Shown: piece after piece, positions 1 to 52,100 of the stretch | How the letters are laid out: each line of letters opens with the position of its first letter | How positions within the stretch are numbered: the stretch's first letter is position 1 | NCBI GenBank assembly: GCA_030248215.1 | Contig: JASANG010002537.1 | Coordinates: 186,001 to 250,000, forward strand | Source: Enoplolaimus lenunculus | Lineage: Eukaryota | Reading direction: 5' to 3' | DNA length: 64,000 nucleotides | Made by a program: the position numbers and the translations under genes | The notes under the pieces: model-generated | Databases searched by the model: none | What the model saw: only the letters and a program-made list of their open reading frames with translations | What the model was told of the DNA's origin: nothing

Positions 1-3000
1 TTTTAGATGTGGCGGTAGCTTGTCTCTCAGCAAAACCAACAGACGATCGCGCGCAGATGCAAACTCGACTGTGCTAGATGCCAATATGTCGGAAATTAAA
101 GATATCGGTTGAAATACAACGTGAATCACAAAAGCCCAAAGTGGACTACAAGGTTCCCATAAACGAGGACCCGTTGTAGTTTCCAGTCGCGTCAACCCAA
201 ATTTATCCACAAAACAAGCAATCAGCTGCATTACTCGCATCACTAGCTTGACCCTTGATGTTTCAAATTGTTTCATAACAGGATAAGGAACAAAACTGTC
301 ACTCAGATCCGCTTTAGCATTATGTTGGCTGCTCGCCAATATACTTTCAACCAAATCGGCAAAAGGTTGACGAATACAGTTTGAGGAAAACCAAAGTATT
401 GCTTTTATCACTTTCGACCCAGCTTCTGGTTTCAGCAAGCTTTCAACATCCGATAAATCTTTCAGCATAACAAAACAATAACAATCGACTGCAGCCATTA
501 CATCGCTCATCAAATCGCCAACCCTACGTATAATTTCTGGTGTCGATAACCCGGCATTCAACGTTTTATCTAAAAATTCATCAAAATTCTTGCAGCGAGA
601 TATTCCTCTCCCAGAGCGAGCAGCAAGAGCCTCCTCCTGACCAGCTGATTCAAAAACATTCACCAACCATTTTTCTCCAAGTTGCTTCACTTTGCCAGCA
701 ATGTACGCATTCACTGATGACGTTCCCTTTAAATACGGGCAAAACGCTTCCAACATCTCCATTACTTTCATTCTCATTGCAACCTCAGGTTGGCCAATCC
801 TGCTTAGCAACCAATCTACCGTAGTAGCTAAACTAGCATTATTACAATGAAGTGGTCGTAGACGATTTGAATTATCAGCTAAAAAGACTGTTGCTTTCTT
901 TGTAATAATACGTATTAAGTGATCTAACGCCGTGGTCAGTTCTTTCGTTGTGCCTACGGCATCACTGTCCCTGTCAGAAAGCACAAGAGCGTTTGTAAAA
1001 TCGACCAGCAACGCTAAACTATACGCATCCCAAATCACTGGCTCTTCTCGAAATTGTACATATATCGAATTGAATGTCACCGCAGCGCCCAGTCGCTTAA
1101 ACGGATTCGGATGTGCTGCATAACAAGAAATGTTACGCATTAAAGTGTGACACCGATCAGCTGCGGATACACCACGTGGAACATTGCCAGATATGACCGA
1201 GGGAGATTGTTTTATGGACCAAGACACAAACTCATTCAAACATTTTGCGCTGAAACGCCGCAATGCAACGTTCGACTCGTTCATAACTTCGGTCATTAAA
1301 AAATCGAGAAGCAATTTCGCTTCCATATTATCGACACCAACAAAACTTGTAAACCAGTGAATCATTTGAAGCACTAACGGTGCAAAAATTTGACGACCGA
1401 TCTAAAATAAAATAATTTGGTAGTCAAACAAGACAATACTGTTTCACTACGTAAACTTCATCCAATAAAAGCAAAGCTTTTAATGATATAAAATTAATTT
1501 TGCTCTTAAACAGGTTCTGCTATACGTCTTTTCATTTTCTTGATTACACCCAGTGTAATAACCCAATTTGAACAACGCGGCTCAATATGCACCCTTGTTT
1601 CTGCTACAAATACAGACACTTAACATACACCACAACAACAACAATCGAAAAGATTGCCAACACGCTGTAACGTTCTTTTATACAAAATTTCAATGCGGAC
1701 TTCCGTCTGTTACAAACTGAAAATATTCCTAAAAACCCTGTACAAAACCACCAAGAAAATGATGTTTGAATGCTAAATACTCGTTTGGCTGCACACCTGA
1801 TTCCAACTTAATAATTATTACCTCGTCCACATCACACGCCAACGTCATCAACGCTGGAAATATATGCGACAAAATCTTTGTTCGTGAACACAATTTGCTT
1901 GTAACATTTTGTACCGTTGAAGAACCAATTAAATACAACACTAGTGAATGTAGCAATTCACATGCAGACGTTTTAGTTTGCAAATCGCTCGACGACACAG
2001 CCAACTCGCATGTCCTAGGCAAGAAATTATCGAGAATGATGTCTAATTTTACATCACGAAACGGTACCGGAAAGATCAAATGTCGAATCGCGTTATCCCA
2101 GGCGAGACATGACGTGGTAGCTTGTTGAGTAGTCGCTTGAACAAGTGCACGCTGACAGCGCCCACCGCCAATAGCCAATAAGGTTACAACGTCTAAGCTT
2201 AGTTTCTGCGCAGAGCTGGTAACGAGCGGAGTGTCACCAGAGAACTCGTTCCCAGCAACGGCGTACGATTTTCGTGGAGATTGTCTCGTAAAACGAACAC
2301 GATTTCGAGCAGTCGGCTTTCGTTCTGTTTTAAAATTAGCCCTTGATACAGTTTTACTGGCTCCAGCATCAAGTATATCACTCAGTGAATTACTCACAAT
2401 CACCCTATCTTGTGACTTGATCTCAAGATAGCTATTCAAATACGGAGCAACTTGGTCGAAAATCTGATCAACCTTGGCCACAGGATGCGCTTCAACCCAA
2501 CGTGATAGCATACTTATACAAGAACTCGCAACCGGGGTATAACCAGTTCCAATCCTCAACGCCTGTACCACAGCAGGTAGAACTGTGTCCAATTTAGCTT
2601 CTAGAACCACCAGCGGAACTGCAAAAATAAATTGTAGCGCTTCCACAAGAACTTCATGTTCGTATGCGACACACCGGCATACTACATACTCTACAAATTC
2701 TGAGTACAGCTGAATGCACTGTGTGACTTCACGCGTTTGATTATTTATTAACCTGCGAACACCTTTTTTAAGACTAATATCATTGGCCATTTTAATTCCT
2801 GTCGAGAAAAAATCGACCCGTTTACAGCCCTCTACCACCAATTGTAGCAAACTGTACAATCCGGCATGAATAGTCGAGTGATCTGTTTCATGACTAGCGT
2901 ACACCCTTGAAACTAACTTTTGTGAAATTTCCCAAGCCCAATGCCGAAATCTGCCTTCGCGATCAGTCTCTGGCTCCAGCAACCATTCTTTCAGAAACAG

Positions 3001-6000
3001 CACAAGATTTGCAAAAATGCTGCAATCTTTAGGAGAATTGAAGAACACATTTTGACTGCCACTGCAGGTGTCTTTGGTAAACTGCATTCTAACACTTGTT
3101 GTCAAATCTAGCTGATCAACAAGATCAATGATTCTTTGAATCACACAATCATATACATGCCTCTGTAGCTTGCACAATTCAGCTTGCACTTTCGTTTTGC
3201 TACGCATACCAAGCAGACTGTTGTGAAGAGCATTTGTCACATCAAGTATGCCACGCCACAATGATGCATAGTCTAAATATGAAATCGGTTGTGCCAATAT
3301 CGATGACCACCTTGTTGGGTGGGCTTTTGATTTTTCCCACTTCTTCGCCGTAGTTTGGTTACCATCGTTTTCCGTCTGGTCCGTAGGAGGTGGATGTGAG
3401 CATGCGAACAACATTCCATGACCAATAATTCTATTCACCACAGAACCTAAATCTTTACTGACCAACGCATGGAAAACTTTCAGCAAGCTCACTATCGACG
3501 GGCGGCGATATTTTTCATCGAGCAAAGGGTAATGCTGCATAAACAGGGCGCATAACCGTTCCACAATACTGCAAAAAGCATCGAATTTTGCAAGTTTAAC
3601 TAAAGACTCGCTGGAAATTTCTGGATCACTCAGATTTATCGTTTCGAACTGAAGCAATAAACTTGAAAATGCATTCAAAAAGTGAATTGTGTACGGAATA
3701 TAGGCTTCAATTTCTGCCGACAAATCAGTCAAAAACAACTGTTCACACTGTCGCGAAACATCTTGCATCATTAATTGAAGATCATCTGGACCGCAGTACA
3801 TCTTGCACGGTGGCGCGAAAAAACTATAACTTTTGACTGCCATTGCAATCAAACGAGTATCCGTGCTTTGCATCAGAATCCTACGATAATGAGCGATAAA
3901 ATACTAAAATGTAAAAAAACATCCAAAAGAATAAAAAGTAAATAACATTATGACACAAAAAAATTAACCCAAACATAATATGGCATGAAAAATTACGTTA
4001 TTTACACAATTCACAGGAAACAGATTGTTTTTGTACTTTTCTTTCGGCTCTTAATTTTACAAGAATTTGCCTTATCCGTTGCAAAGTAGTGGCATAGCGA
4101 CCGTCCGCTGCCAACCATAATAAAACAACCATGGAAGCAAAGTTTAAGGAATTTCACTAAACCACACCACGTATCGTTTAACGGAAAAAACCTTACCCTT
4201 TCAACTTGAGACCCTAGGATTATAATTAAAAGTTGTATTGTGACATCGAATTCATTAATAAGTTCATTTTCAGATTTTAAGCTTTAACGCTCCGTATGTT
4301 AAATTTTGGCTATATGTATCTAATAAGCATTCTAATCTCTTACACTGACCTAAGCATGAACACGGCATACTTCAAAGTGTAATTTGTCTTTTGTTAAACG
4401 TAAGAAAAGAAGACATTGTTTGAAGCAAGCGTGGCTTCAAAACCTCCCTAGGAAGCTTTGGGTGTTCCCATGGGTTCTCTCAACACCATTGCTCTCAAGC
4501 AAGGACTTAGAATAAAGGAATTACATAAATATAATCAGCTTGACATAATTACTGGTTCGTTTCAGCTTATAGCAATAATTTTGCATCTTGAGGCTGCTTC
4601 AGTGGGTGCTGCGAGTTAAATGATATCTTTATAAAACTAAGATTCGGAAGCCGGTAACTCAAAATTAAATTTTCTATATCCAAAATTGAAAATGTGATTT
4701 CGGACATCCAGATATATACGAATACACGGATAAATATCTGGCAAGAATTGAGGGATATCCGAATAAAAATAAAAATCCGATGTCCATCAGTACTAAAAAC
4801 CGGGATGATGTCCCGCTGCACCATACAGTTTAAATACTGCAATGAACTAAGTGTACAGAATGTTATGCATGCGTTAAATAACCTACCGCAAATATTGATC
4901 GGCACTCTGCCACTTTAGTGTCATCACCTGCATAGTCTTTTAACATTTCCGCCATCTAAAACAAAACGTCGTATCTCATACCGGATATGGACAACTTGTG
5001 ATGAAACGTAACAAATCGTGAAAAAAATTCATGAAACTCGGGCACAAAATAACACGAATTTTTATTCAGCTTGCCAACAGGAATGCTAGTAGTAGTAACT
5101 GAAGGAAGACAACAAAGCATATATCCCCATTTTGCTCAAAATTGTGTGCCGATTGCTTAGAACCCGGCAGACCAGAGAGCCTGATATAAGGGCATATCTA
5201 ACGTGAATATGTTTAGCACATAACTCATTGAGAACACCGACAGTGTCCACCGCCACCAAATTTATTCTCAATTAAAATTATACCAATAGCAAAAAATATT
5301 GCTGACTTGCTCAAGAAATTTATCCATACAAGCAAACGCAGCGTGCTTAACATCCTTCGCGTCTGTGCGGTGCGCAATCCAATGATCCAAAGTTTGATGA
5401 ACATTCTGGAAAAAATCAACAACAATACACTAACAGCTCACATACAAGAAACATCTTCTTCAACGGAGCACCTAAATTACAGTAGAGTTCAATCTGATAT
5501 CCGGCACCGGCCAAAAATCAACATCCTGCTCCGGCTCCAGTATTCCTGAAGTCACTAATAGGTGTGCCCGTACACATGAAATACTGCACTCATATATGTG
5601 CGCAGGCCAACCTGCTATTCAGTCCAATTACTAATTGGCATTGGCCAATCTGCTATATTGCGTAATTGCAGTTTCGCCTAGGCTAAACTGCTATTAAATT
5701 TATTAACCAATCAAATTTGATAATTTGGACAGACGTGATACCGTTATACAATCAGCGTTGGTTTTACATCACTGCTGTTTTACTACATCTTACGATAGCT
5801 ATTTGGCCTAGGCTTACAGATTGGCCAAGGTCAGTTGGTAATCGACCTGAAAACAGATTGGCCTACGACATATAATTGCGTGTAAATATATTTTATATGC
5901 TGCATACTAGGGTTCCAACGGAAAATCTGTTCCGGCTAGAATTATTTTATTTTCCGTTACAGTTCGTTACACGTAATTCGGAGGTGCAAAATACTTGCAA

Positions 6001-9000
6001 TTCTTCCAATTCCTCGTCTGTTCCGGCAAAAAACTGAATTTCTGTTCCTTTGAAAACGTACTTTTTGTTGGATCTTTGCTGTAAGTATGCTGATATGCAA
6101 ATCACCGTATAATTAGACAACAAACATTAGTATCAGGGAGACAACGATGAATTTTCAAAGGACTACACACTTCTCGACGATGGATCATGAATCTGGATTT
6201 GGCTAAATTTTTTTCGGATACCACAGTTTTAGAACAGGCTGGCAAATTTAAAAATAAAATACTATTTCCACTTCAGGTTAAATGATCAATAACGGCAAAA
6301 ATAATATATATCATACTAACACTATAATCGGTCAATATTTTGTCTTTGAACAAGTATATATGGTGTTCTAGAAGTTGCAAAGCGTCTGAAACAATTTGAG
6401 TTAATATAAACGTGCATAACACTCATTTGATATTTGCAAATTAATTCGCTGTCTTTTTGCCAGTAATGACAAACTAGTAGTTTGCAGCAGTACGTATAGA
6501 AGGCTTCAACTAGCCATATAAATTAACATTTTTTCTTATAATCGATCGATCGCGGAAATAATTACAGAGTTAATTAATATGGCCTGCTAAATAATATGGC
6601 CTGTAGAAACAATGAAACTATATTCGAGCTTTCTTTTGCAAAACTGGAGACAAAGCGAAAACTATTAAATCTTAAAATACGGTCGTCGTTTCAAAATTCT
6701 AAATCTGTTTTGTCTATTCTTACATAACGGAGCGTCGTATCTGGAAAGTTTATTATCTGGTTGAAGCACCGTCTTGATGAATGGATAAAGCTGGGCAGCA
6801 ATCTCTTCTGCAATCAATACATCGGCATTATTTCGCCCAAATAATTTTAATACCTACGCATATGCCAAGCTAACATGACATTAAGCCGTAAAAACATGTA
6901 ACACAAGATAAAAACTGGCTTTAGCAACAAACACCAAAGCTATCAGTCAAGAATAATTTTTCTGTATTCGAGTCAAATTTGCAAAAACATGCACGTAATT
7001 CTAGAAAGTTACGAAAAGTTTCAAGTTGCAATCAACTGAGAATGATGCAAATTTCCATACGGCAGTTTAAAATAATACAGCTGATAAACAAGTTTAATTT
7101 TTGTTGCATGTAACACTGACCGTTTCCAAAATTTGTCAAAAATCCATCAAAACCTTTGAAGCAACCGGCTACAGATATTAGCTCAGCTTTGTGGATGCGG
7201 GATTGCAACTGAAATATAAGACATATGCTGATAATTAACTGTATTTACAAACTTAATAGTGTAATTTTCAAAATAAATCAAATACGCTATGACCTGGTAT
7301 AGTCACTTTTCCAAGTAGTGTGTTCTTTGATCTACATATGAGTAGCGTGTCCAATCGCGACCAAAACAATATATTAACAGATAAACTGAAAACTTTGCAT
7401 GCATTATAAAGCAGAAGCAAAATAATTCCAATCTGCAATTCAGGTTCAAAGCATCGACAAATATTAACCTGAGATCGAAGATCCTGGAAAAGTGTTAACT
7501 TTAAAGCATTTGATCGCGCTTGCATCACTGTTGGAGCATAAAAACACGCCACACCGAGAAATTCATAAACGCTGAACAACACTGAAAATAATTAGTGCCG
7601 AATAAGGTAAATAACTCAGCAATAAGCTGCTGAAATGGTAAATCAACACTATGTACAGCAACAAGATATAACCAGGGTGCAACCGAATTTATAAAAATAT
7701 ACGAGATTGAGCTGATACAGAATTTTGGTTGTACCAACGGCAACCTATGGTATAAACCAAATTGGCTTAAAATCGAAAAACCTGTTTCCTATCAAAAATA
7801 ATGTTAGAGCTAGATCAACGGGTGCACCAAACTTGAAAAAACATCATTCCTAGAAAATAGACGAAAGCAAAGCCCAATTTTATATTCCGGGCTATGTTGA
7901 TAAGATGGTGTACTTTTCGTTGTCCCAAAAATGTATACGCATTGCGCATAACGAACTTAATCCTTACATGTGGCAGATTTTTCAGCTTTGCTCTTCTTGC
8001 TCAAAATCCGATTAAACAACAGTTCTACAACTGCCTCAATGTCCACGTTTTCCGATAATCCTCGCTGGCAAACGCAAGTGACAACCTAAAACACAACGGG
8101 CGGGTTTCTGAAATCCTACTTAACTTTATTATTTACTTAAGTTAAACTTAAGTAATTACTTCAGCTGCCGACTTAAGGAAATACTTTTTTGAACAAAACC
8201 AAATACACGCCAAATGTCCGCCATTGTCATAACAAAGGGTAACTGTTTTGCTTTATATTAAAGAGGACAATGAGTCTACAATTTCAATTAGACCATGATT
8301 AGTATGTCTACTCGGTTAATTTGTAAAATATCACATTTTAGTCAGCGACTTAAGTACTTAGTTAACTTAAGTATGTTTTTAAAAACGACAAAATTGTTAA
8401 GTAATTACTTTTACTTAGCGCGTACTTAAATACTAAGCCGTAATTGAGTTGGGTTTCGGAAACCCTGCAAATATTATGTGTATACGTACTATACAATGTT
8501 GGGAATAGAAATAATTTGGCATCTATAGCAAATGTTTTTTATTTAACAAAAGCTAAATAGTCGAAAAATAACTGGGACACGCATAATAAACCATCGGGAA
8601 ACTCGAACAGAAATTGACTAACGTATGAATGTAAAACAAGACTTATAATACAAAAAGCTTGGAATGCATGGGTGTATGTTTCGTTTTACTAATAATCAAT
8701 ATGACTGTAAAGAACTCACGACAGAGATCGTTCGTATGAGCAAAGCCTTCAGCTTGATACCAGGATTTGACATTACCACATCACATAAAGCGCTCTAAAA
8801 GAAGCATACAAACGATAACTAATAGCAAGCGAAAATGCGGGCGATTATACGAATTAGAAAACTCGGATGCATAGAGAATTCCACTCGCTTATTCTATTCC
8901 GCATGCTACACAACCAAAAATCGAGTGTCCCGGTGGCATAAAAAAAGCATATACAAAATATTTTATTTACCACTGCTTTATTTATGCTTGCGAGTAGCTG

Positions 9001-10151
9001 ATGATATGCTCAACTAGCTTCACGATCAACATCAAAAACTCTGCGATAATTCGCCGTTTTCATGTAAAGTTTCCTATACAATCGCAATTAGCACATGTGC
9101 AATTTTATATAAAAGTCCAAGCATCGCATTAAGTTTCGCTTACCGTAAGCTGGACCAAAAAATTTGTCTGGAAATGATGCAGTATATCATTCGATTGCAA
9201 AAAGTTCAACAGCACCATTTTAGCTTCGGCAAACTAAAAACAGTTATGTAAAAATTTTAATAACAAGTATGTAGTAGTGTTCGTCTATTAACACAAATTG
9301 CAACGATAATAATGTACAATTGTGGTCAGAATAAAGTGCACCCGCACACGTACGCGGCCGCAGACGCACGCAGATGCAAACGCACATACCGACACGCAGA
9401 TAACCGCGAATGAACGCTACCTCATGCTATGTAATTTGACACCTATTTTATATCAAGCAGATGCTTGTTAGTAATTCCTGTACAAACAGGCGCAAATGCA
9501 CGCCAACACAAGCACATGCAGTAACACGCAACACTTTGTTTCGCGGATTTAGCACCCGCTGAACTCATAGGTAGTACACATCGTATTGCAAATATTATTT
9601 TGTATAGAAGGAAAATGTACAACAGTAATACGCATTACATACTCGATTTTCTTTTGCCCCGGATGTCAGAAATAAATTAAGGCCATCAGCTTGCTTCTTG
9701 AATGCAACAGACAAAATGTGATCTATAACGGCAGATTATGAAGCATATAATATGTATAATGACAATTACATGAAAATAATACCTCCTATTAACACTCAAC
9801 ACTTCTGCCTGTTTAAAAATGTTCAAAACATACTATTATAAGTTCTGGAGTTAAACAAAAATCAATCACTTTATTTTATATTTAGCTAGCAAATATACGC
9901 TGTTAAAGCGCATGCAAGTTTTTCTAAAGCCCGGAAGCAACTGAAATAAGCTCGTTATATCTACAGCCGGTTTCGTAGTCACATTTAAAAATAAACTGAC
10001 CAATTTGTTTTGGACCAGCAGTTTGTAAGAAGTCCAACAACACAGCACATAAATCTGTAAGGCAGGTGTTTGCGTCATCGTCGGTTGTGCAATCATTTGA
10101 AATAAGCTCAGCTAAATCGGCTAACCGAGCTTCAATTTCACCAACGTCCAT
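1..10151 (-). CDS. PRKDC: DNA-dependent protein kinase catalytic subunit, N-terminal HEAT region; multi-exon, 3' end beyond the left edge
   Basis: ATG at 10151 (MDVGEIEARL). Small GT-AG exons translate to DNA-PKcs-like peptides: LLFSVYEFLGVACFYAP..LFQDLRSQ (~7470-7580), ISVAGCFKGFDGFLTNF (~7120-7210), KLSRYDAP, ALQLLEHHIYLFKDKILTDY, HWIAHRTDAKDVKHAAFACMDKFLEQ. These are followed by a 2059-nt exon 3880-1822 (AVKSYSFFAPPCK..LAWDNAIRHLIFPVPFRDVKLDIILDNFLPRTCELAVSSSDLQTKTSACELLHSLV..LACDVDE) and an exon from 1401 past base 1 (RQIFAPLVLQMIHWFT..RRFSAKCLNEFVSWSIKQ..HPNPFKRLGAAVTFNSIYVQFREE). These match remembered human PRKDC motifs (LACDVD, QLIHWFT, EFLKWSIKQ, HPNAFKRLGA). Confidence 0.93.
5586..5884. 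mobile_element. palindromic MITE-like element in a PRKDC intron
   Basis: Imperfect ~65-bp inverted arms (catatatgtgcgcaggccaacctg..ttggccaatctg / cagattggccaa..cagattggcctacgacatata); no ORF. Confidence 0.55.
8101..8467. mobile_element. TIR MITE-like element
   Basis: Inverted termini cgggtttctgaaatcctacttaa / ttgagttgggtttcggaaaccctg, with many internal cttaag palindromes. Confidence 0.55.
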
Positions 10152-10297
10152 TTTTAAAACGATATTCAAGAAAAGATATCACAAACTATAAAATAAACGT
10201 GAAAAAAGCTCCTATGAGCCAGCATAGCGGTAAGTTGTTTTCAGAAATAGTATTGGTAACAATACACTGTTGCTTACGTAACAGTGAGTCTAAGGTG

Positions 10298-30500: not shown

Positions 30501-31713
30501 TAGCAGAAAAATATAACATCTCTTAAACTTTTATGCTTCAATATCCGCCTTCGGTTATTTTGAACACTATCCGTTTCCGTTATTTTTACTATCCGATTAA
30601 ACAAAGGGAACAAGCGATAAAACATATCACGCGAAGATATACAAACTTGAAGCTAATTTTTTGTTAATCTACATCTTTGGTTCAAATTGCTGCTATATTA
30701 CAAAACACAAAAATGCATTGAAACTATATACAATCTAAAATAACATAAAAACGTAACGGATATATAGTGTAAAAACAAACATAGCCCATCATTACATAAC
30801 AAAATAGTAAAATGTCCCTAGAACATCCAATATTTAATCATGCCGATTATTGAAATAAAAGCAAAAATAGCCTAACCATAAATCTGCTCTGTAGCTCAAT
30901 TCCGATATGCCTTAAAAATTATAATATTTACCGAAATGAGTGCAATACATTTGCTTCACGTTTTATAGATCAACTTCTCGCTAAAAAATGTTCACGTACA
31001 TTCTGTAAATAGTTTTGTATTTAAAGTACCATTTTAACAGGGATATGCCGATTAATCGGCATTGGCTATATTCGGCACTTTTCGTATCGGCATCGGTACT
31101 GCAAAAAAGTGCCAATACTTTCTGCACATTACAGTGAGTTAGAATGCTATCAATCTAAAACTTGTAGGTGTATATCGGTGCGTCTGATTAGGGAAACTGT
31201 TACCTCTGTTGCGTTTGTCTGAAAAAAATTTAAAAATGAACCGGTCATAAAATAATAACTTTGTGGTTGTTAGGGTTTAAGTGTTCGCATTTATTATAAT
31301 GATGTAATGTTGTATCTCTATTCTTTAAGCATTGTGTATTAAAATTGAAATCGGCACTGGCTTCGACAACATCATCGGCGTATTTCCAAAATAAAAATTG
31401 ACATCGGTATAGGAATCCCAAAAACTTTGGCATCGGCGGAACCTACAGTTTACACGTGGTGCGTAATACTAGTGCTTAATATATTATCATAGACTAATAC
31501 TTCAGAAAAGTTTTATATCTAGGCTTGTTTACGGCTACAAAAAGTTCATAAAATGAGGTAGAAACAGAATGCAGCCTCTCATTATTATCGAAAGTCTTCT
31601 TTGCAAAAGCGATGCAGTCTGCTATATCAATCGTTTTCTTTACAAACACGCTCCATTGTTTGATCGCTCAATCAGTGCAACATAATACTAATCATATTGA
31701 CAGAAGCGCACAT

Positions 31714-37700: not shown

Positions 37701-40700
37701 TCAAAAGCAAAATCAATATCAAGTATGTTGTTATTTATCAATGGTACCACAAAATTTCATTTAGCTATAATTTTTAATGGTACCACAAAATTTAGTTTAT
37801 CATGGACGACTGTCACGAAGACATTTTCAAAATCAGTTTCCATACACCCTACTATTTCTACATCTTCTACGTCGCTTATTGTTTAGCCATAATTAAATTT
37901 CATGCGAAGGAATTTTACTGTGAAGGGCTTGGTGTCCGTTTTCGTTGTTGGGTGGGTACTGCAAGACGCATGTCATTTTAATCGCATGAACACAATACAT
38001 GAGTTAAGTGAATATTACTTTTTGGAAATAGATCCGACATCATTTCTTCGTACAATTCCATTAACTGATGGTGCGAAGCGTTAGAATCAATAAAGTGTTG
38101 TATGTCTTCGCAATAATTCTACAATATATGATCAAAAATAAACTAAATCTCAAGCGGTATTTCCATCTGGTTTTATAATTTTATGCTGCTGCGTTGTATT
38201 GACTATCGCTACAACCGGCAAAATGCCAAAACAGCAACACTTAGTTTAAAGTAAAAAGCATCCTCCATGTTCAAAAAGCAAGATAAAAACCAAAATTAAA
38301 TTTATTTAGTGCCTCAAATATTCGGTATACAGTTGTTTAGCCATTAAAATTACTGACTGCCAGTCAAGTTCATACGGTCACGGCAAATGATACCAACCTT
38401 AAATCGAGATGCTGGATGATTTAGGTAACCAAGCGCTTGTACGAGATCAGAAATGAGAGGCAAATCATCAATTTTCTTGTCCATCCTGAATAATACTTAA
38501 AACGTTTTGCAGATTCAAAACTTCCAACAGAAACAGATACAAAAACGTTTACCCAGTGCGTAATATTGTAAGACTAGAAAAGAAATACTACTTGATGCTA
38601 CAATTTAGCAAAGCAACATGGAACCCCTTGAAACATATATCAGAGCAGAGTGAGACAGTATATTACATTGCCGAATACTGGATAGTGCATTTTTACTGGA
38701 ATAAAACAGTAACCAGATATATCTTCTGAGTTCGTAGAGGGAGTAGTACAAAAGTATATGTTCATTAAATACGAATTTTATAATTGTTCGGTTGAATTTT
38801 TCATTTTTAGTTCCGTGTATCAAAACCATAACTTCAAGACTTGCCCACAAAGCTAATCGCAGAAAGATGTTAAAGATGCTTACCCGAAAAAAGCTGTTTA
38901 ATGACATTTGGAACCACGTATATTGGCTTTTTGCCGTATATTAAATGGAATCCGGACATAATCGCACCCTGAGACAGAGCACTCAATTTTTGTATTAACT
39001 ACATTACTTACGATTTTATGCTATTACAAATTTTTTACGCGAGGGACTAGGGAAAACTTTGCGCATACCCACAAAAATGCTTACCAGTTTATCAAACATT
39101 GTGCATCATAGTTTAAATTGTTGCCAAAGTCATTACGATTTAGCTTATATGGATATACCATAGCCTGAAAAACAATATCACATGAACAGGATAAAATTTT
39201 CCGAAGGAAGGAACGCTTAACAAACAAAATATATTATTAACGAAGACAATGAAAACGAAATCTGTCTATGCGCTTAAAGACTGAAAAAAATTTAAGTGCA
39301 AACTAGAAATTAATCGGAAAAATACTGAAGTCAAACTAATCTATAATCGGCGAACTACACTTCGCTGCCCCACGTAAAACACAACTTCGTCTAAATTTAA
39401 AAAAGATTTACCGCAGGATATTTTTCTGTAATTCTTCGCAGCAATTTGTGCAGTGCCAACCCTTCAGGTTTATTAATTAGTGATATCATTTGATCAATCC
39501 AATCAAAAAACAACCACTCTGGTATAGGTTCCACCTAAATATATGTCACAGCATTTTATAACACACGTTAGGGTAGGGTTCACGCAATTTTTGCGATATG
39601 GTAGCGTTAACGTATGACAATTTTGAAATTTGACAAGTAGTGTTAACCCTACGAAATTTTTCATTGTGAACGATGCATTACTGCAACCAATTAAAACATA
39701 TAAAAAAGGAAACACAACAAATTAAAATAACGATATAAAAAAATTTGAACATACTATTCAATGGTGTGTAAATACCATAGTATAGTCCACTGAAACATTC
39801 AATCCCATAATTTGCAGTCAACACTTATATGAACTTACATATAGCCGATATTAACTTATTAAAATCGCTCTCAAGCAAAAACTGAGTTCTGTTTATCTCC
39901 AGTTTACATTAGTAAATGCTACATAGCAACAATGATAAATGAACAGATTATAAAATAGAAAGACCGCTTACATTTTCTTCAAATATTTGTCTAGTCGCAG
40001 ATGGATATAGTTCAAGAACGTTCAATATGTTCGGAATGCGGTTTAGCGTAGCAGCGGTTGCAGAATACTTAATGCACAATAGTAAGCACTTGATAAGAGT
40101 ACATGCATATCTGGGACCATCAATTGCTGCAGATAGTTTCGCATCTGCAATTTAAATAGCACTCAACTCAGCAAAAGCAACTATTTAGCGAAATAGTTCC
40201 CTAAAATCAAGAGCATAGGCAGCGGGGACCCTTCAAAAATCCATGCTAACGAAACATTAATGTTATGAATCGAACCTCAGTCTGCATGTTTATAATAGTA
40301 TTCTAATTTGCATCCAAATGGGATAAAGCATAACTTAATCTAAAAGCTTCGCCAAAATGTTAATCTAACATCCTTATCAAAGTCTCGCCTACCAGTCCTA
40401 CTAAAAATACTCACCTCTGAGCATTTTATCGCAATATTCAGCCAATTCAAACCGTCCAAACGAATAACAAGTATTGTCATCAACTTTGTCCTCGAAGACT
40501 GCACTGGAATAGAGCTCGAAACATCTGTGAATCAAACAATTGGTCACCTGCAGAAAAGAAAATGATTACAGAACCATTCAAATTTCAACCAGTATTCTGA
40601 AAAAATATAGAATCAAAGTAAAAACATTATTTTAAAATCAAATCCCTCTTTCAGCCAGCTGCATGTTGGATCCAATAAAATGTTCTATCGAACACAACAC

Positions 40701-43700
40701 TGTTACCAAATTTTTTTCAAAATAAATTAACACAAGTTTCAGGACAGAATCGTTCAATAAAATGAACAAAGCTGTTGCATTGTCTCCATGACAAGTTTGT
40801 GAGTCAATATTACACAAATATGGCATACCTCTGCTAAATTTGTACTATTATGTTGCAGACCAGCTAACTGTAAAATTTTCGTTTGATCCGCCTGTGATAT
40901 CGCATGCCAAACGTCTACTAAATCTTGTTCCGGTTGCGTAATTAAAAAATCAATACACTGTGCAAGCAGGACATCCGAATACCTACAGTGTCCTGATCTG
41001 TTAGCAGTGCCTGAAATATCAAATACTGTTATAAAACACAATAACCTTGCGTGAACCGAGCAACGAGAGTGCATAAGAGTGCAACCGGACATCCGGCACC
41101 GGCGAAAATCAGTGTCGAATTTCAACATTTTAAACAAATTGAAGCAAGTAGTTACTAAACGACTGAGATTTAATGTTTATTTTATATTCAAATACGCACT
41201 TCCGGCGGTATAATGTATCTTTAATCGCTCGCAGTCAATAATGCATTTTACGAAATGTTTCTTCTTCGCGGCGATTCGGCTGCTATTTTAAATAAACTGA
41301 AAAACTCTGTTTACGTTTTTTAATTTTCAAGTACTCTCAGCTAATTTCCATCTTGTATGTTGTTACATTAATGACTATTAAACTTGCTTCTGACACTTTC
41401 CACAGTTGTCATCACATTGCCAAATGCTTTAATTGAAGGTGAGCATTTAGCTTCTGTGAGAGCTATATGTATGTTTGCACGGTGCCAGTCGCGATCCAAG
41501 TCACGTATTAATACCAAACCGTCACTAGTTTCATTTTCGCGATTCCGTTTCATATCTATCAAAATCTGAAACAAAAACAGACTTAATTTGAACCAGGAGG
41601 ACGAAAAAGCTGACGTTTCTGTGATGGTTAACATAGGCGGTGTTTGCGTCAAGCCCCATACACGCATGAAAGTTTTTGCATGGAGAACTAGCCTCTGCAA
41701 TCTGCACGAGTTGCTTGCACATGCAAGTATTTGCAAAGAACGTGAAAAGTCCAGTTCCTGCTTCTGCAATACTTGAAAAGTAATCAATTTTTAGCAAGAA
41801 TTCAGATGGAACATTGCTAATAAATTCCTGGCCTATATTCATGTTGAATAATTTGCAGCTGCAAGTTCTCCAAACTAATTTTCGGACGAAACTTGCAGCT
41901 GAAAGTTTCACCTGCAAGAAATATTCACGCGTTAAGGTTTGACTCGTATTAATTTATTGATTTAAAACGGTTTCAAATCTTAAAATTTCTATTTAGTGCT
42001 TAATAGATGTAAAACTAGTCTAGTCGCCGTCTCCGCGGACCGTGAAATCAAACAAATTTGACATTACAAATAGTTCAAGATCCTCACAAAAATTCAAAAA
42101 GTTTGAATTAATAATCAAAATTCAGATGCAAGAAATTCAAGCTACTGGAAAGTGCGTTCACATGTGCAAAAAACATAAAATTTTTCTTGGATCGCAGCTT
42201 TGGCCCGTAAGTACTTGCGCATTTCGCCTACCAACAGAGACAGCGAACGATCGTGTAGCCCCGCTACCTGGTTATATAGCGATATGAGAAACAGAATTAC
42301 CCTTTCGGTTACCCAAAACTGTATCTTTTTGAAAGGAAACACAAAACACTTTTATTTTATTGTGACAAAGTACAAATAGTTGCATTTTTGCGTTTAAAAC
42401 ATTTATGGCATCGCGTAAAAATATGGGTCATCCGCATTTATAACGTCTACGCTATGTTAAAAAATTCTCCAGTCTATTTCGTTTGCCCGGGATCAAAAAC
42501 AGCACAGCTTTGAGTTAGGGTTGTAGAGACGGTGTTTGAAACAGAGGAATTTGTCCCGGGCCTTTTCGAAGGGTATGGGCACAGTAGCCAAGTGAAAAAT
42601 AAAGTAAAAAAAATAAAGCTTGACGGCGATTTATTAGTTTAACTGTATAAAACGGCAATTCACAGCAGATAGAAATATTCAAAACAACTTTTGTTCAGAT
42701 AATCTATTTTTATTTTCGGGAACAACGGTTAAAAATGGACCGAAACCCAGACGAAATTCTCGGTCTCGGTCTCGCTTTTTTGACCGAGACCAGTCATCCC
42801 TGGCCATAACAGATCTGGTTTGTCCAAAAATAAATGAAAACAATATTCTCCAAAATACCATGATCGTAAGCACAGATACAATATATACCGATCTCCTAAT
42901 AGGATCTACTGCTAGCAGTATAAAATCTATATACGGCTGTCATAAACATACCTAACCATAAGAAATAACACTTAAACTTTTGTGAGCTTAATTTAAAATA
43001 AATTTACATAACAATTTACAGAATTTAAAAATTCTACCTGTTGCGATTTTTTCAAGCAAAAGAACGCCGTTGCAAAATTGCGCTGAGCTGATGCCGCGTG
43101 CGCTTCATTGATTCGCATTTTAGCAACAGCGCCTAAAAGATCAGTTGCTGGCTTTCGAGCTCGAAATCTATCTCGTTCCGATGATTTCAATAACAGTTTG
43201 GCAAGCACTGATCTGAAAACGCAATAATTATACCAGATACGGCATTTTAAGTTTTCGAAGCAATTATTTCAGTCGGTACCATAGCATTATACTATATGTT
43301 GTGTAAAAATTAAACTCTGCCCAAAAGTGCGATAGAGCAGCAGCAGCAGAAAAAAATATTTATTTATATATATCACAGTATTCTATGACACAGCATGTGA
43401 TGTTATTCATGTTTCTATGATAATTGCCATACACAAAGGTCACACATAAATTGCGAATACAGGTTAGAAACAATGCAAATTTTCGATTCCAATAACACCT
43501 TCTGAACTTACTCACAACTAATATTGTAAACGTTGTAAAGAAATTCAACATTCAGGGTAAATGAGAGTCAATCGTAGAAATTTTCACATTATAAGCCTAT
43601 CTAGAGCGACTATGACATGAACTGTTGCAAGTTATATCACACATACCATCTTTATCAGGTCTAGTAGTATTACGTAATAAAAGAGTTACCTGTTATGTGT

Positions 43701-46700
43701 TACGTTAGACCAAGTAATGGTATCGTCATATGTTGCGCTAGGCTGGTGACTCAGCCAGGAGGTAGCAAACTGACTAAGTGTTTGTTCATTAACACCTGAA
43801 ATAATACTCCGAATTTTGTGAAAATGTGTCAATGAAATTGGTATAGCAAAAGGCGGTTACACGGCACATTTACGGCGTTGCCAAATATATTTTAGCACCG
43901 TTGAGTTAAATCCGAAAAGAGTCCATATATTCTAAGAACAATTCAGACTAAATTTCCTTAAAGTTAAATTTATGCCTAAAACATATTTTTTTATAAAAAA
44001 TTCCAATTACACAATCATTCCTTTATTAGTACTGGACTCCGTTCTGCGACTAACCAGATTTAAAAGCGCTCAGAGCAAGCTTTGTTTCAATCAACGGCTG
44101 GATGACCTCAATACATCGTCTGGGATTAACAGCAGCATCGTCTGATGTCCATTTGGCCTACAATTTCAAGCACACGTGATAGAAAAGGTAGAATTATAAC
44201 TAAAAGTTTTCACATATAGCACAACATAGATTGACCTTTGAAAATGCCAGCAGATAACCATATCCACACTTCATATATCACTGAAAAGACTTACGCTCAA
44301 AAAACCTTTCATTCCTTCACTACAATATTTTATTGCCGTGTCATATTGAGTCTCCGAAATATGCCAATGAGCGAGATCATTTGAAATCACAGTCTAAACA
44401 GTAAAATTATATTTAAAGAAATACGATTTTAGCAACATACAGGCGGAAACAAATTACAAAATTTTTCTTCTAATGCTATTTGATTATTCTTAGAAATTTA
44501 ATAACGCTACGACGTAAAAAAACTATGACCTTTTATAAATGTCATTTAACAAAGGTAAATGTAGTCTACTTTTAACTTGGAGTTCAAAAACTAAAGTAAA
44601 CGTTAAGCTTACCTCTATTTCCGAGTGTTTTTCAGCGCTCAAATTGCTTTGTTCTACAGCCTCGGCTAACAGTTTATTGCAATGCGCGATGTCTTGGCGT
44701 TCTTCGATTTGACGAACCGCTGATTTGATCAACAAAGGGTAAAAATCCTTCTAAAATAATAAAAGAACCAATAACGTTTATTACTATATTCTTTTAAAGC
44801 AGGACGGAATCCTGCATTATAAATGCTTAAAAATGTGCCTGCCGTGATATAAGCAAGTCTATAACGTTTAAAATGATGCAATAAGAAGCATTTACGCAGT
44901 TATCAATAAGAATAATGTTACTAGAAATTTAGGTACCATTTGTGCTTAGGTATTTCCAGTCATGCACAATGTAGTTGAATATGAACAAAAGAGTACCAGT
45001 GTATTGGGTTCTATGATAGACGTGGCAGACACAACTGAACCGAAAGAATAACTAAACGGCTAATATCTGCAAACTTAATAATTAACACATAAATCCAAAA
45101 ATTGTACGTATGGTAATTTACTTCCAACCAGGATCCAGAAAACCAATCCTTAGGGTTGCGTTATTAGTATCCCCATGCGCGTCACCGGACGCCACAAAAA
45201 ATCAAGTTCTGAAACCGAAGCTCGGTGCCAGCGCAAACCTAATTCATGTTTCACAGAACTGTAAGCTGCAGTATATTCTGAAATCATATTTGCGATAATT
45301 ATCCGACTAACCATAATATCATTACTGTTGCGTACGCTGCGTTCTTTTAAGGTTCCGTTTAGAACATTCCAACACATATCTGACACCTCACGCCACCTTT
45401 GAAGTTGTGCAAGGCACTAGAACGTTAGTATTACATAAAATACAATATATCAGCTCAAGAACTATCAGAAGTATGTCGAGGTCAATTACTTTATAGTGTT
45501 TACCATTGTGAATGCTCAAAATCACCTCCCGTTAATTTTAAGATATGACACATTAAACTTATATTAACTATGATGTATGTGTATTTTTATAATAATATGT
45601 GTTATAAAAATGTCCAAAATCGCGACAGCCAACGGTTAGAGCTCTTATTTTTTCACAATCCAAACAAATAACTCACGTTTAAACGCCCTCGCGTAGCCAG
45701 ATCATGTTCTATCCCAGATAAACAAGAGTTCCTTTTATCGCCCGCAAGTGTATCGCATGCCTGTACACAAATCAGCAAACTATTAGTAAACTACCACATC
45801 CATGAGTCGTCATCACATAATCATTCATGGCATTTCGTCATTACTGCAGTTTTTATTTAGACAATAAACTTTTGTAATGAGAGCCGTTTTAGCTCATATA
45901 AAAGTTACTCCCCTCAAGAAAGGGAGTGTTAAGGGAATTTTATTGACAGTAACATCTGAAACAATCACCTTTTCATATTGAGCCACAGCTTCTTTGGCAT
46001 TTCCGGCTGCTTCAGCGCATATTCCGAGCAAAGTTGAACTTTGAACTTGTAGCTGTGTTTGAAAAATGCTTCGTACTTGATCCAGGCGATTGAGCGAACG
46101 ATAAACCCTTAAACGATCAATAAATTACATGATGCAACATCTGACGTTTTAGAAAGCAACCAGCCGGCACCGCTTTGATCACACCACTTTCAATGATTTA
46201 TTCATAGGCTAGGAGAACATACACTTGAATCCAAGGTGCCACCGAATACCAAAAATGGGGTAGCCGGATAATCCAATATGTGGTCGGAGCCGGGAAAGAA
46301 ATTCCAATCTAATACTAAGCGGCATTCAAATATCAGAACGTTGCTGACGATTCTTCAGTCGTTGGCCTAAGGTATCCAAAGTGTTTCCGTGACAAAGCTT
46401 AACACTTTACGCCGATGCATTGGCCCATGTGACTTTTAAGAGCATTAAGTCTTCCCTAGGTACTATATAGAGCAGTCTTAGGTTTTAAGGTATTAGTCAC
46501 ATACCTATTTTACGCTGCCATATAAACGCAGAGATACTGTTACGCGCCTAAAAATAACACTGGTCGTCTTTCTTGGTTTTCCAGCGTGATTGTAGCCCAA
46601 TAAAGATGGCGAACGTGCACGGGTACATTCAACCGTTTACATGACAGAAAAAACTTCAAAAAGTAGGTAAATCAGTTCCATGACAGTTGGCATAATTGCC

Positions 46701-49145
46701 ATTTCATGAATACACAAACACATAGTTTATTAATCGTTTCTGCGCCCATTTGCATCAAACCTTGGGTCAATATAAATTGTATCGAATGTATTTTGCAGGG
46801 TTCCATCGAAATTCCAGCAAAAATTGATCCATGTTCCTGTTCCGGCACTACGGAACGAAGGTGTCGGAATTTTTACGGCCATGATGAGTTCTTTTGTAGG
46901 AGTGATGAAAACGAAAAATAGACCGGGAAAAAATCGTTCAAGGCACGTTTTTCAAGAGTTTACTAAAACGTATATAAAACTGTAATGCGGTGCTGAAATT
47001 TATTTCAAATTTCGATTCCTGTTCCGGCAAAAAGTTCAATTCATGTTCATGTTATGACAATATTTAGATCTTGTTGAAATCCTGGCATTTTGTAAAATAT
47101 AGACACACAACTTACTTTGCAAGTTTGGCCCATTTATCACTTGCAGCTTCGTTACTGTAAGTCTGCCGGCGCGTAGGCAAACAATGAACCTGAAGACTTC
47201 GGTTATATAAACACTGTACGATTTCGTGTTCCAACTGCACCACAGCTGAAATACAAAATCGGTAACATGCTAATTAAACAGACGTGGTTTAAACCGACTA
47301 CCCTCGTAAGGTGACAAAGGACGTAAAACGTGTCGTTCCTGTCGTAATATGCCAATTCTAGCTTACTAGTTTCTCGATACAAAAGCGTATTAGTCTCCAG
47401 GCAATAATTAAAAATAACATTGTACAAACGAAAACAGGGGAACATAATAGCACAGCACGGGTTAACGGTGCACCCTTTCCTTAATTACGTAGTCCAGTTT
47501 AACAAATCATTTAATGTAATTTTGTAAATAGAAAAATTTCCAGTCTTACTATCAGCAGAATGTCCTGTTTCCAAAACGTTAGTCACTTCAACTAGAATAA
47601 CCTGTGTGGGAAATGTCCATATCAGAGGAAGCTCATATTTTGACATTGTATAAACATTGCGCGCAACTAAAGCACGACGGCAAGCAGAAAACAATTCCTG
47701 ATAGAAACACATTACCAAGCTACCGTTAATTACTTACTTGACATATTTGATTGCTGCAACTCAGAGCAGGTCAAAATATAATTCGTATTATAGCATGTAT
47801 CGTTTGCATATTGATAACTGATCAGCTAAAACACGGTTTTAAACAATAAACATTTTAAATAACCAAAACATACAAAATAAACAATTGTTTTTACGGTAGG
47901 AACGATGTTCTACAAATCATAATAACCGAGCTTGTGGCAACAGCAGAAATGAAATACAAAAAGTTTTTGAAAGCTACAACCTAACTCAGGTGAAACCAAT
48001 CTGTTTTAACAGAAATGTTGCGGAACAAAAACCAACCTTGCTATCGATTCATAATATACCTGGCTTAAACAAAATAATATTTATAGCTTTAGCCAATGAA
48101 CATTTCAAAATACCGATAGATAACTGGACTGTGTAATAAAATAAAGGGTGCACCGTCAACCCGTGCAATGCTATTATATGCTCTTTCTCTTTTCGTTTCT
48201 ACAATTTTATTTTTCAAAATACCGATAGTTTTCACGTACATTATCTGCATATTGCGCTGAGTAACCGCAAGTTAGCATTGTATCTTCAAGCATAGATCGC
48301 ATGAGTTGCACTAAATCCAAGCAAAGGTGAAGCCGTTTGACTTCACCGCTTCTACTGCAGCCGCTTGTATCGTACACATGATTTCTGAGACTTGTAAAAA
48401 ACGAACTCAAGACAACAGCCATATCAATTGAACTTTTCTGAAATAGTTACAAACGAAAAGAAATGGTGTGTTTTATCGTTAACTTAGATTTTTCAATTTA
48501 CAAATTTCAAATCAGTAAGACGCCGTTCACATAAAAATTTTGTTCAATGGTGCAACAGATTCTCATGTAGCACTATTTTTAGCCATCTTTTTCATATCAC
48601 AGAATTCTACTTCAAATATGGTTATATCCAGGTCTTTACAATCTGATACAGACCACAAAATTTTAGAATGTCAACCCGTTAAAACCTTAGAATGTCAAAC
48701 CTTTAATATATACGCGTGTGTATTGTGTGCGTAGCAATTTGTACCCTGTAAAAATGGTTTCTGTGTTATACTGCATGTGGAGAGTTTTGAAAAAATTTTG
48801 TGAACTGTGATAACCCTTGCATTATCATGTACCGCAAGATCAGGGATAGAAGAATTTTCTCTTAAAGCAAAAGAACCTAAACATTTTCTAATTTAACTAC
48901 AAACCACAAACCAATTGTTACGCCTTAGCTTGCACAATGCGACTATTCAGTTACTTATCATACTTGCTCAATGTCAAAAATTTCACCACTAGTGAACGAC
49001 AAATTACCTGATCGAGTAAATAACTAAAATTTTCCACGCCTTTGTACTTGAGGCAAATTTCGAGAAACCGTTGCGTTACAGGAGACTTGCAGCCACGAGG
49101 TTGATAACTTGATAAACTTGTCAATAAACAAGCTCTTGGCTTTCG
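31714..49145 (-). CDS. DNA-PKcs-derived portion: end of M-HEAT, FAT, PIKK kinase fold (pseudokinase), FATC
   Basis: Peptides [191 protein letters not shown] are collinear with remembered PRKDC (GQYDGRGKPLPEYH, GLSEETQVKCL, ATDPNILGRTWEGWEPWM*). Confidence 0.92.
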
Positions 49146-52100
49146 CTATAAAAAGTGCTAGTCAAAGTAGCTGCAAGGTTTGCAACATCAAAATGTCAAA
49201 GCATACGTGGCACATCAAAGTTCCGACCTAAATTGACGTGAAATTCTAAAAAATTTATATCTCTAATTATGTGCGCCCCGCCAGGACAAATATTTACAAC
49301 ACAATACCGAGTCGGTTATTTTGCACCGAAAAATACCAAATACATATTTTCTTAACAAAAAATTCGTGGTCCGGGACTCAGAACTTCTCAAAGCCAAAAC
49401 CAATACCCTGCCAAGAATGATTTACTATAAATGTATATATCCAAGCGGTCGCGTTACAAATTGTACAGGAGTAATGCGCGACGAACGGTTCGAACAGGCA
49501 GACATCCCTTATATATTACAGGCATACATACATGTTTCAATATATTTTGTGAGCTTTTTGTAAAAAGTCCTTAAACCTACATTTTAACGGTAATTCTAAA
49601 AATGTTGTTTTATTTCATAAATGTTAGGTCCAAGTTCAAGTTTATGCAATGAAAAACTACAGGTCCGGATCTCTGGGTATTTATTTTTAAACTTTGCATG
49701 TCTGATGAAAACAGTGCCCAAGGTGCGTAAGTAGTTTTTCAATTTTAACAAAACAGATTACGTTGGAATTAAAATATTAGTTACACACAGAATAGTATAC
49801 TACTACATTAAACTGTGTGATGTAATATTGCTATATTTTTAAAGCTTTGTGTCAAAACATCAAGTAACAATTAAGATAGTTTGACACACCTCAAATGCTA
49901 AACTTAGAAATGTTTTGCTTCCAGTAAAATTAAAACATTTGTACTGCAGCGCTTGGAAATTTTTAATATTAAGCTTAAAGAATATGGTGTATGAGTATGT
50001 GTTGTACCTCTTTAGTGCATCTTCTGACGGAATTTGTACCACAAATGGGCAATGAAGCGTTTCGGCGAGATGCAGAAGGTGAAGAATTGCAACGCTCGAC
50101 ACGGCGTTTGACCATGCGCAATTGTAATTGCGAAGTGCTAGCTTAATACGAAAAAGTAACAAAACGCTGTAAACGCACGAAAAGTTAAACTTAAAACTGC
50201 TTCTCCACAGCTTGAAAATTTCCGCCGGGGGCGTTTCCTGGGGGGCCCGCAGGAGTTTCCTGGGGGGCAGCTGATTTTGCTGGTGGGGCAGTTCTCCTGG
50301 GGGAATCTGGGGGGTCCTGGGGGACAGGCTTAAAATTTTGCAAACCGACTTTTTGGACCATGTTTTTCATTCCAGACCGTGTTTCCAACTCAACTGAAGA
50401 TAATAACAAAAATTTTAACTAATATTACTGACAACTTAACTAGAAATTGAAAGAAGCACAATTATATAAAATACAGATAATCTATAATTGAAACTGTGAT
50501 TAATATATATTGTATATATTAGTTACAGCTTCAGTTTATCATAAGGCTCAGGCGGGTTGAACTTGCTGTTGCAACGTACTTTCGAATGCTGTATGCCCTG
50601 AAACGGTCTTTATATAATTGTGCTTTTTTCAGTTCATTATTGAATTGTATTAGTTACTACGGGTATTTGTAACGCTATTAAAAATTATGACTACTCAGCG
50701 TAATATAAATCATATTTTGCCGAATATCCGCCTCAACAGAAGTCCAGGTCTTTACGCTTTAACATTGAAAATTTTTGGCCTAGAAAAGTCCTGGGGGCCC
50801 CCAGCCAAAAAATTTGCTGGGGGCATTTTGCTGGGGGCGGCCAAAAATTCGCCGGAGGGCGGCAAAATTTTCGCCGGGGGAAACTGAAAATTTCGAAAAG
50901 TGCTGCCCCCCCGCTGTGGAGAAGCCAGTAAAACAGTGGCCAAATATTTAAAGAGCATAAACTCTGGGTCAGGGACCGAAAATAAAAATAAGATTTTTAA
51001 CAACACTTTTCAATATTTTTATCTGCTTTGAATTACCGCTTTATGCAACTACACTAATAAATCGCCGCCAAAAATTATTTTTTACTTAATTTTTCACTGG
51101 CTACTGTCGCCATACACTTAGAACAGGCTCGGGACAAATCACACTGTCTCAAAACATTCTCAGTACAATCCAAATTTAAAGCTAGTGTTGTTTTTGCTCT
51201 TGGGCGAACCAAACAGACTGGAAAACTTTTAACATAGCGTGACGTTATAAATGCGGATGACCCATAATTTTTAAACGATGCCTTAAATGTCTTAAGCGCG
51301 AAAACGCCATTATTTGTGCTTTGTCACAATAACATCAAAGTGTTTTGGTTGGTAATTACTTATCGCTTTTTCACCTCTTTGGTCTTGGTTTGCTAACCAC
51401 CGAGACCGGGAAAAGCGAGACCGAGACCAGCCAAATCCCAAGACTTGCCGAGACCGACACCAGCCAAATCCAGAAACTTCCGAAACCGAGACCACACATC
51501 CCTGCTCTGGGTAAGGCAATAAGCAAGCACTAGGTAGGACCCAAAAGAATATCCGGCCCCGGGTCCGGCAAAAAATCGTCATCCGACTCCGACTCAGGTA
51601 TTCTACAATGCCAGATATTTATTGCTGATAAGTATAACAGAACTCTCAGTATTATAATATTATTTATGACCAAAATGACAAAACTCATCTCAAATATCCA
51701 ACTCCGGTGTTTTGCATAACGTAGAAACGTGATAAGCACATCCAAACATTCATATGTTATTTAAAGTAAGTCGCAAATGTTGCTATAATCAATGCCGATA
51801 TTTGATAATCAACATTTAATCTATAAATGTCGATATTGAGAATGAGACTATATCTTCCTAATTATTTAAATGCTTCAAAAACATACCTTGACAGCGCGAA
51901 AGCCTTTCACTGTACTTTTGATCTCTTACTGAGGCACAACTGGCACGACGGCGTTTGGCGGCAGCCTTAGTAACTGCTTTAACTCGAATATTGTTCTCGA
52001 GCCGAGGTTTAACGCCATCAGCGTCGAATGATGACCTGAGTAATCGGCGTTCTGTAATTCCATTAGCGACTCCTGAAAAGTGAGAAAAAATAAAAATACA

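Follow-up and report, generated by a model that had tools for sequence, protein, structure and literature searches.

A permuted DNA-PKcs locus in the nematode Enoplolaimus lenunculus, with a predicted pseudokinase head lying between a Wip1-like phosphatase gene and a separately initiated N-terminus

Published accounts describe TRRAP/Tra1 as the sole pseudokinase of the PIKK family. In mice, a full-length but kinase-dead DNA-PKcs (the product of PRKDC) prevents ends from being ligated and causes embryonic lethality, whereas the null is viable (PMC6990542); the human protein can be expressed separately as fragments 1-2713 and 2714-4128 (PMC4191403). Contacts of the forehead, the YRPD motif and the end-binding helix are disrupted by ATP (PMC10657183), and nine forehead residues are listed as invariant, among them R924, which lies in one conserved patch with YRPD (PMC8021618). 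Here we describe a locus of Enoplolaimus lenunculus in which a DNA-PKcs C-terminal FAT-kinase-FATC block (the head) and a DNA-PKcs N-terminal gene (the left gene) lie in permuted order. The locus was analysed in a stretch of 64,000 nucleotides (assembly GCA_030248215.1, contig JASANG010002537.1, positions 186,001 to 250,000), hereafter the window, which contains no N and in which all modelled genes are on the minus strand.

Read 5' to 3' along that strand, the order is a Wip1-like phosphatase gene, the DNA-PKcs C-terminal block, a sugar transporter, a BolA gene and the DNA-PKcs N-terminal gene. The permuted arrangement of the DNA-PKcs parts is real. A sequence-only reading of the same stretch had proposed that a C-terminal block lies upstream, on the same strand, of a separately initiated N-terminus, with two unrelated genes in between and no overlap in homology between the parts, and all of this was borne out: the block contains 30 GT-AG exons from 48437 to 31713, the N-terminus has its own ATG at 10151, the intervening genes match PF00083 and PF01722, and the best blastp match between the two parts has an E value of 0.59. 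In the assembled order, the head cannot be spliced in cis behind the left gene into a single ~4,000-aa polypeptide.

The left gene runs from its ATG through 13 exons, with all introns GT-AG, and its frame of 1,505 codons is still open at base 1. A 27-sequence DNA-PKcs profile matches it over columns 7-1372 (894 bits), and Pfam recognises DNA-PKcs_N and DNAPKcs_CC1-2 in its N-HEAT and circular-cradle regions (PF20500, E 1.9e-58; PF20502, E 4.6e-70); two of its exons match human DNA-PKcs residues 341-980 and 980-1229. The profile alignment puts base 1 at residue ~1,410 in mammalian numbering, in agreement with the ~1,400 estimated earlier. The window ends there, and residues ~1,410-2,750, with the NUC194/CC3 domain and the ABCDE loop, lie to the left of base 1. 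Of 49 highly conserved columns, the left gene has kept 42 and lost 7. With human numbering mapped through alignments, eight of the nine forehead residues listed as invariant are retained; the exception is R924, which is replaced by leucine (codon 1983-1981). Of 65 long homologs, 64 have a basic residue here, including all 47 that bear a kinase, and none of the 47 has leucine. The left gene is built of 11 small exons followed by two long ones (3903-1822, 2,082 nt; 1401-1, at least 1,401 nt); set against a median of 135 nt in the 30 exons of the head, these long 3' exons suggest one-sided intron loss.

In the head, the 30 exons leave 1,375 codons open, and a further exon at the 5' side (exon B, 49145-49008), which is coding and has no ATG, brings the total to 1,421. 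The head is collinear with DNA-PKcs profile columns 2822-4019, the latter being the last column, in one unbroken alignment (736 bits, E 6e-225). The open frame and the unbroken collinearity therefore indicate a maintained gene and not a decayed pseudogene. Its kinase domain looks dead, as the earlier reading had remarked. Although K3753 (36432) and D3922 (34897) are kept, N3927 is changed to H (34882) and D3941 to G (34840), at the DRHxxN and DFG positions respectively. Further changes affect GEDLR (E to K, 36423), the hinge (W to V, 35880) and an EP pair (to QS, 34014). Among highly conserved columns, 16 of 18 are kept in the FAT region and 43 of 56 in the kinase, where the losses include ATP and metal positions. 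The D/N/D triad of D3922, N3927 and D3941 is intact in 47/47 kinase-bearing proteins among the 65 long homologs, and N3927 and D3941 are listed as invariant across 85 species (PMC8021618). A six-frame search of the window returned no YRxGxxPD-like motif, whose Y, G and P positions are kept without exception in 38/38 full-length homologs. Judged from these residues, the head is likely to be a maintained pseudokinase that is catalytically dead.

The descent of the head from DNA-PKcs is indicated by its catalytic exon, for which DNA-PKcs is the closest PIKK (47.6 bits; next-best family, 26), while one N-lobe exon scores slightly higher with mTOR (49.6 against 45.5). TRRAP is not the closest kinase: its matches reach only E 0.86-0.89, with E 0.89 for one exon that matches DNA-PKcs at 6e-11, and it is absent from the best 60 of 146 matches. 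Since it fails two defining features of active DNA-PKcs, we file the head as a DNA-PKcs-derived pseudokinase and not as an ordinary member of the family. A search of 1.84 billion representatives found no close relative among the best 150 of 514 matches, the top match having 31% identity.

How far upstream the homology of the head extends is a separate matter. Significant DNA-PKcs homology begins near residue 2,920, and the proposal that the C-terminal part starts at about residue 2,700 was not confirmed. Codon spacing would place exon B, the start of the head, at residue ~2,750, and a Markov coding model picks the head's frame for exons B to E (42 of 43 correct in leave-one-out). Nevertheless, the exons starting at 52072 (exon A), 49145, 48437 and 47697 gave no significant in-register DNA-PKcs match with HMMER, Pfam, a local profile or anchored alignment. 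When exons A, B, C, D and a candidate exon X were anchored on residues 2,700-2,900, 5-12 of 60 shuffles reached the score (z at most 1.6); in local profile alignment the scores of exons A and B were reached in 8/300 and 5/300 shuffles, but the endings were out of register. Exon C found only hypothetical clusters in the ESM Atlas. As four homology tests failed on exons A and B-E, a start of the head at residue 2,700 is unproven.

Comparison with the described systems brings out both likeness and difference. As in human DNA-PKcs (PDB 5W1R and related chains), the N-HEAT region and forehead are present, in the left gene, and FAT, kinase and FATC are collinear in the head, where K3753, D3922 and the FATC tryptophan are kept; here, however, the C-terminal part is a separate upstream block, N3927, D3941, the hinge tryptophan and YRPD are lost, and R924 is leucine. 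The head resembles TRRAP/Tra1, which works as a scaffold, in keeping the FAT-kinase-FATC unit without the catalytic residues, but it is derived from DNA-PKcs, still has K3753 and D3922, and stands apart from its HEAT region. The laboratory fragments N-PKcs and C-PKcs reportedly mirror a caspase cut. They (1-2713 and 2714-4128) divide the chain at approximately the same loop, albeit as engineered fragments of an active kinase (PMC4191403). The D3922A mouse likewise has DNA-PKcs structure without catalysis; there the change is in one chain and lethal, whereas here it is natural, concerns other residues and is apparently under selection (PMC6990542). In the DNA-PKcs-PP6 complex a Ser/Thr phosphatase that acts on gamma-H2AX, among other targets, is also physically associated with DNA-PKcs, although that enzyme is non-covalently bound and of the PPP family, in contrast to the PP2C/Wip1-like enzyme here, which would be covalently attached if the fusion is spliced (PMC4069685). 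Degenerate lepidopteran DNA-PKcs-like proteins have similarly lost YRPD in an invertebrate lineage, but their catalytic residues are intact, their forehead is missing and they were not reported as split (PMC8021618).

Both explanations offered by the sequence-only reading, a split gene and a partial duplicate, stand beside the permuted order and the dead head. We tentatively prefer the former, to which we would give a little under an even chance: a single PRKDC gene would have been split near the ABCDE loop, with products that come together again at DNA ends bound by Ku and form a scaffold free of kinase activity. Expressed as the ratio of identity to homolog-homolog identity for the seven best-scoring homologs, the two parts are equally diverged (0.79-0.81 for the N-terminal gene, 0.78-0.82 for the head), and this equality, together with the loss of R924 beside that of YRPD, leads us to lean slightly towards a split. 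Moreover, a dead kinase would need an escape such as a split, given that the one-chain kinase-dead form is lethal in mice and the null viable. Several points weigh on the other side. The end of the left gene is beyond base 1, outside the window. The invariance of N3927 and D3941 in 85 species and in 47/47 homologs means that a sole copy lacking kinase activity would be without a precedent that we found. Most pseudoenzymes arise alongside a paralog that is active, and genes are partially duplicated more often than they are split. R924 is one residue in a gene that has lost 7 of its 49 highly conserved columns overall, and the equal ratios are weak because identities near 20-35% are close to saturation; measured against all 38 homologs the ratios are 0.89-0.95 for the N-terminal gene and 0.80-0.90 for the head, the kinase end being somewhat more diverged. 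If, instead, the left gene is full-length and active, its 3' third may have been copied behind Wip1 long ago, have lost catalysis and now serve, free or fused to Wip1, as a pseudokinase module that would tune or target DNA-damage signalling, a real possibility that we place clearly short of even; the role of antagonist, which the sequence-only reading gave such a copy, is conjectural. Partial and chimeric duplicates are common, and such a history accords with catalytic residues that never vary among the kinase-bearing homologs and with the 42/49 columns and 8/9 forehead invariants kept by the left gene; the lack of overlap between the parts would then simply reflect that residues 1,410-2,750 fall outside the window. 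It sits less easily with a head no more diverged than the left gene, with an R924-to-leucine change seen in none of the 47 kinase-bearing homologs, and with a free head that, having no HEAT cradle to bind Ku-DNA, would need a new function to be retained; there is also no excess depth in sequencing run X1, which excludes a recent copy only.

The locus is covered by three runs of one study, X1 and X2 from one sample, possibly the source of the assembly, and X3 from a second. In X1 the depth is 42-45 over the head and 41-50 over Wip1, and this equality gives no indication of a collapsed near-identical copy. X1 and X2 contigs over 51428-56325 and 42975-50228 have no differing letters and similar depth. 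Between them lies a high-copy repeat cluster whose summed depth is 29,000-54,000, against ~45 in run X1, and we infer that the rearrangement junction lies in or near it; none of the X1/X2 contigs listed crosses this 1.2-kb repeat between Wip1 and the head, which also counts against a split. An assembly error would turn the locus into one conventional, kinase-dead PRKDC misjoined at repeats, with the Wip1 donor and the start-less head exon as loose ends. This could account for a donor at 51887 and an acceptor at 49145 that are out of phase, for the coding but ATG-less exon B and for the unspanned cluster, and a single gene would explain the equal divergence and the paired loss of R924 and YRPD. 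We nevertheless consider it highly improbable: a second misjoin, between head and left gene, would be required, the window is free of N, similar repeat clusters in Wip1 and head introns are crossed with exon order and frame intact, and long X1/X2 contigs match 42-62 kb with no differing letters (X1 being perhaps the assembly's own sample). Slender, too, is the prospect of a permuted extra copy, inserted in the manner of a circle while an intact PRKDC persists elsewhere, or of a pathway in decay as in other nematode lineages. An order of C-terminal part, other genes and N-terminal part is the outcome of reinserting an excised circle, and DNA-PKcs is reported to be absent from chromadorean nematodes; yet both parts have canonical splice sites and fully open frames, of 1,421 and 1,505 codons, which argues for ongoing selection.

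Upstream of the head, the phosphatase is 1,150 aa long if its last exon runs to its own stop. A PP2C domain (PF00481), with its metal-binding acidic motifs located, falls within approximately the first 350 aa, where identity to three named nematode proteins (3 named of 6 matches) is 47-49% over ~350 aa. The named matches are annotated as PPM-type or hypothetical; we take the protein to be Wip1/PPM1D-like on the basis of motifs and not of a tree. One of its exons (55206-53041, minus strand; 2,166 nt, 722 aa) is of low complexity, rich in Gln, Asn and Ser, with several S/TQ sites and no Pfam match. A possible optional exon of 47 nt (55338-55292, minus strand) is in frame only with a shifted upstream donor.

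The sequence-only reading had the head carrying Wip1, and of this the existence of in-frame splice routes was upheld, while the fusion itself became one of several splice models: the strong donor and the head's acceptor are out of frame and a standalone start is possible. We regard in-frame splicing of Wip1 to the head, as predicted from splice sites and frames, as evenly poised. The donor of exon A at 51887 scores 10.3, and sites of at least 10 occur twice in 34.9 kb of non-coding and not at all in 10.8 kb of coding sequence; behind it the GC content drops from 0.49 to 0.23. These features and the ATG-less exon B favour a fusion. Conversely, the stop of Wip1 itself ~30 nt beyond the donor, the AATAAA at 51623, the frame break at the direct join and the alternative standalone start disfavour it. 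Exon A is weakly like nematode Wip1 tails, with 6, 141 and 773 of 1000 shuffles reaching the score for the individual proteins and 22/1000 for the sum. Joined directly, 51887 to 49145, the product is out of frame and stops at codon 1,181, and no joint listed in the contigs connects the two sites. Inclusion of exon X would restore the frame from Wip1 to the head (2,575 aa), and ten control stretches held no equal candidate at a threshold chosen after exon X was seen; its weak coding score and GC content of 0.24 count against the fusion. Alternatively, the weak donor at 51930 (score 3.9) would join Wip1 to the head directly and in frame (2,548 aa). The standalone start, for its part, would need an intron of 61 nt, whereas the shortest of the 48 introns modelled has 137. 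We considered reading exon B in the frame set by 51887 and rejected it: the donor required scores 1.0, lower than any of the 48 donors in the gene models, and the coding model favours the alternative frame. A search for long proteins with a Wip1-like domain gave one match among 2,787 candidates, with helicase but no PIKK domains; that no long Wip1-PIKK protein turned up there is weak evidence. Acceptor-like sites lie at 61016, 49245 and 10185 (minus strand), 57, 30 and 34 nt before the ATGs of Wip1, the head candidate and the left gene; such acceptors are as expected of leader trans-splicing or of introns in the 5' untranslated region.

Run X3 appears to contain cDNA. Two of its contig ends, 57621 and 56070, fit a spliced joint through what would be an exact 30-letter overlap. 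No joints are listed in X3 contigs over 51430-56150, and X3 is unspliced at most true sites as well; its read-through of the 51887 donor was therefore discounted as evidence against fusion, as the true sites at 55861, 55206, 57931 and the ends of 60298-60107 are also unspliced. Contig cover in X3 is almost nil at 47976-49303 and nil at 52694-53009, holes that count as no evidence, and none of the RNA runs listed covers 1-3903. One X3 contig (52070-51416, minus strand; depth 34.7) starts 2 nt inside the 52072 acceptor with adapter-like letters at 52070, which we take to be a template-switch adapter; this contig end may be a transcript 5' end, at which ATG 52063 opens a short frame.

Returning to the split, which we prefer, a possible course can be outlined. 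A local rearrangement would have broken PRKDC between residues ~2,600 and 2,750, placing its 3' part behind Wip1 and leaving a left gene that stops near the break point. The head would be retained for its structure, as a lid over the HEAT cradle. Once the chain was cut at the phospho-regulated ABCDE loop and YRPD had gone, the release of DNA ends would no longer depend on autophosphorylation; the latch opened by catalysis would have been removed, and the active site could decay. The orphaned head may have borrowed the transcription unit or promoter of Wip1, either through in-frame splicing or with its own start behind Wip1. Wip1 is described as a checkpoint-silencing phosphatase (PMC3763429), and an in-frame fusion would bring this activity to DNA breaks. 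It is tempting to speculate that the only DNA-PKcs of this nematode is split at the ABCDE loop and that its pseudokinase head, fused to Wip1, docks on the Ku-bound cradle, a swap of kinase for phosphatase that we consider unlikely.

The coordinates of all features are collected in Table 1.

Table 1 Features of the Enoplolaimus lenunculus DNA-PKcs locus, in window positions
Feature	Position	Strand	Details
Wip1/PPM1D-like PP2C phosphatase gene	51858..60959	-	8 coding exons, ATG 60959
Exon A, last or internal Wip1 exon	51887..52072	-	strong phase-1 donor 51887, weak phase-0 donor 51930
High-copy repeat cluster	50228..51428	none	between exon A and head; copies elsewhere in window
Candidate bridging exon X	49532..49569	-	38 nt, phase 1 to 0; acceptor 5.4, donor 7.8
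Candidate standalone head start	49207..49245	-	acceptor 49245 (9.5), ATG 49215, donor 49207 (6.0)
DNA-PKcs FAT-kinase-FATC head	49145-31713	-	31 GT-AG exons, 1,421 codons open
Exons B-E of head	47116..49145	-	coding, in frame with FAT region; no demonstrable homology; no YRxGxxPD
FAT region	36771..47245	-	profile columns 2822-3560
PI3K-like kinase domain, predicted inactive	33994..37001	-	PF00454, PDB alignment, column counts
PRD/FATC end	31713..33023	-	conserved Trp kept, aligns to last profile column, stop codon 31715-31713
MFS sugar-transporter gene, modelled part	21496..26114	-	PF00083 on four exons
BolA-like gene, one exon	15709..15894	-	PF01722 above curated cut-off; between sugar transporter and left gene
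DNA-PKcs N-terminal gene	1..10151	-	13 exons, profile and Pfam matches, open at base 1

Repeats are found at several other places in the window. A GC-rich element in the last intron of the head (31930-32110) recurs in the interval between Wip1 and the head (50200-50960), the two being 93% alike over 97 nt. Units of ~170-180 nt form a very high-copy repeat at 56100-57550, 12830-13300 and 32268-32332, with a summed depth of up to 400,000 against ~45. Two tRNA-like repeats at 61570-61900, in which ARAGORN detects no tRNA, are over-represented in X3 relative to other repeats and are probably tRNA-derived short interspersed elements. TTAGGC is not enriched in the window (30 occurrences, 28.7 expected).

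As far as titles and abstract openings go, in a literature that took in few subscription journals, we found no precedent for a DNA-PKcs pseudokinase, a Wip1-DNA-PKcs fusion, a PIKK fission or an inactive invertebrate PRKDC duplicate, and no comparable case in the nematode PRKDC literature. The head would join TRRAP as a second natural pseudokinase among the PIKKs and, should it prove to be split from the left gene, form part of the first natural two-chain PIKK in the literature so covered. DNA-PKcs catalysis has been treated as invariant, and in mice a kinase-dead form is more harmful than none. A head under selection without its active site and YRPD separates the scaffold role of DNA-PKcs from its kinase role, and with this locus the question of why the release of DNA ends requires catalysis becomes testable. 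Were it a partial duplicate instead, the head would still represent an unreported pseudokinase module derived from DNA-PKcs. The Wip1 fusion, if true, would tie the termination of the signal to the break itself, and should the exchange of kinase for phosphatase also prove true, DNA ends would be sites of dephosphorylation by the complex that in vertebrates acts there as a kinase.

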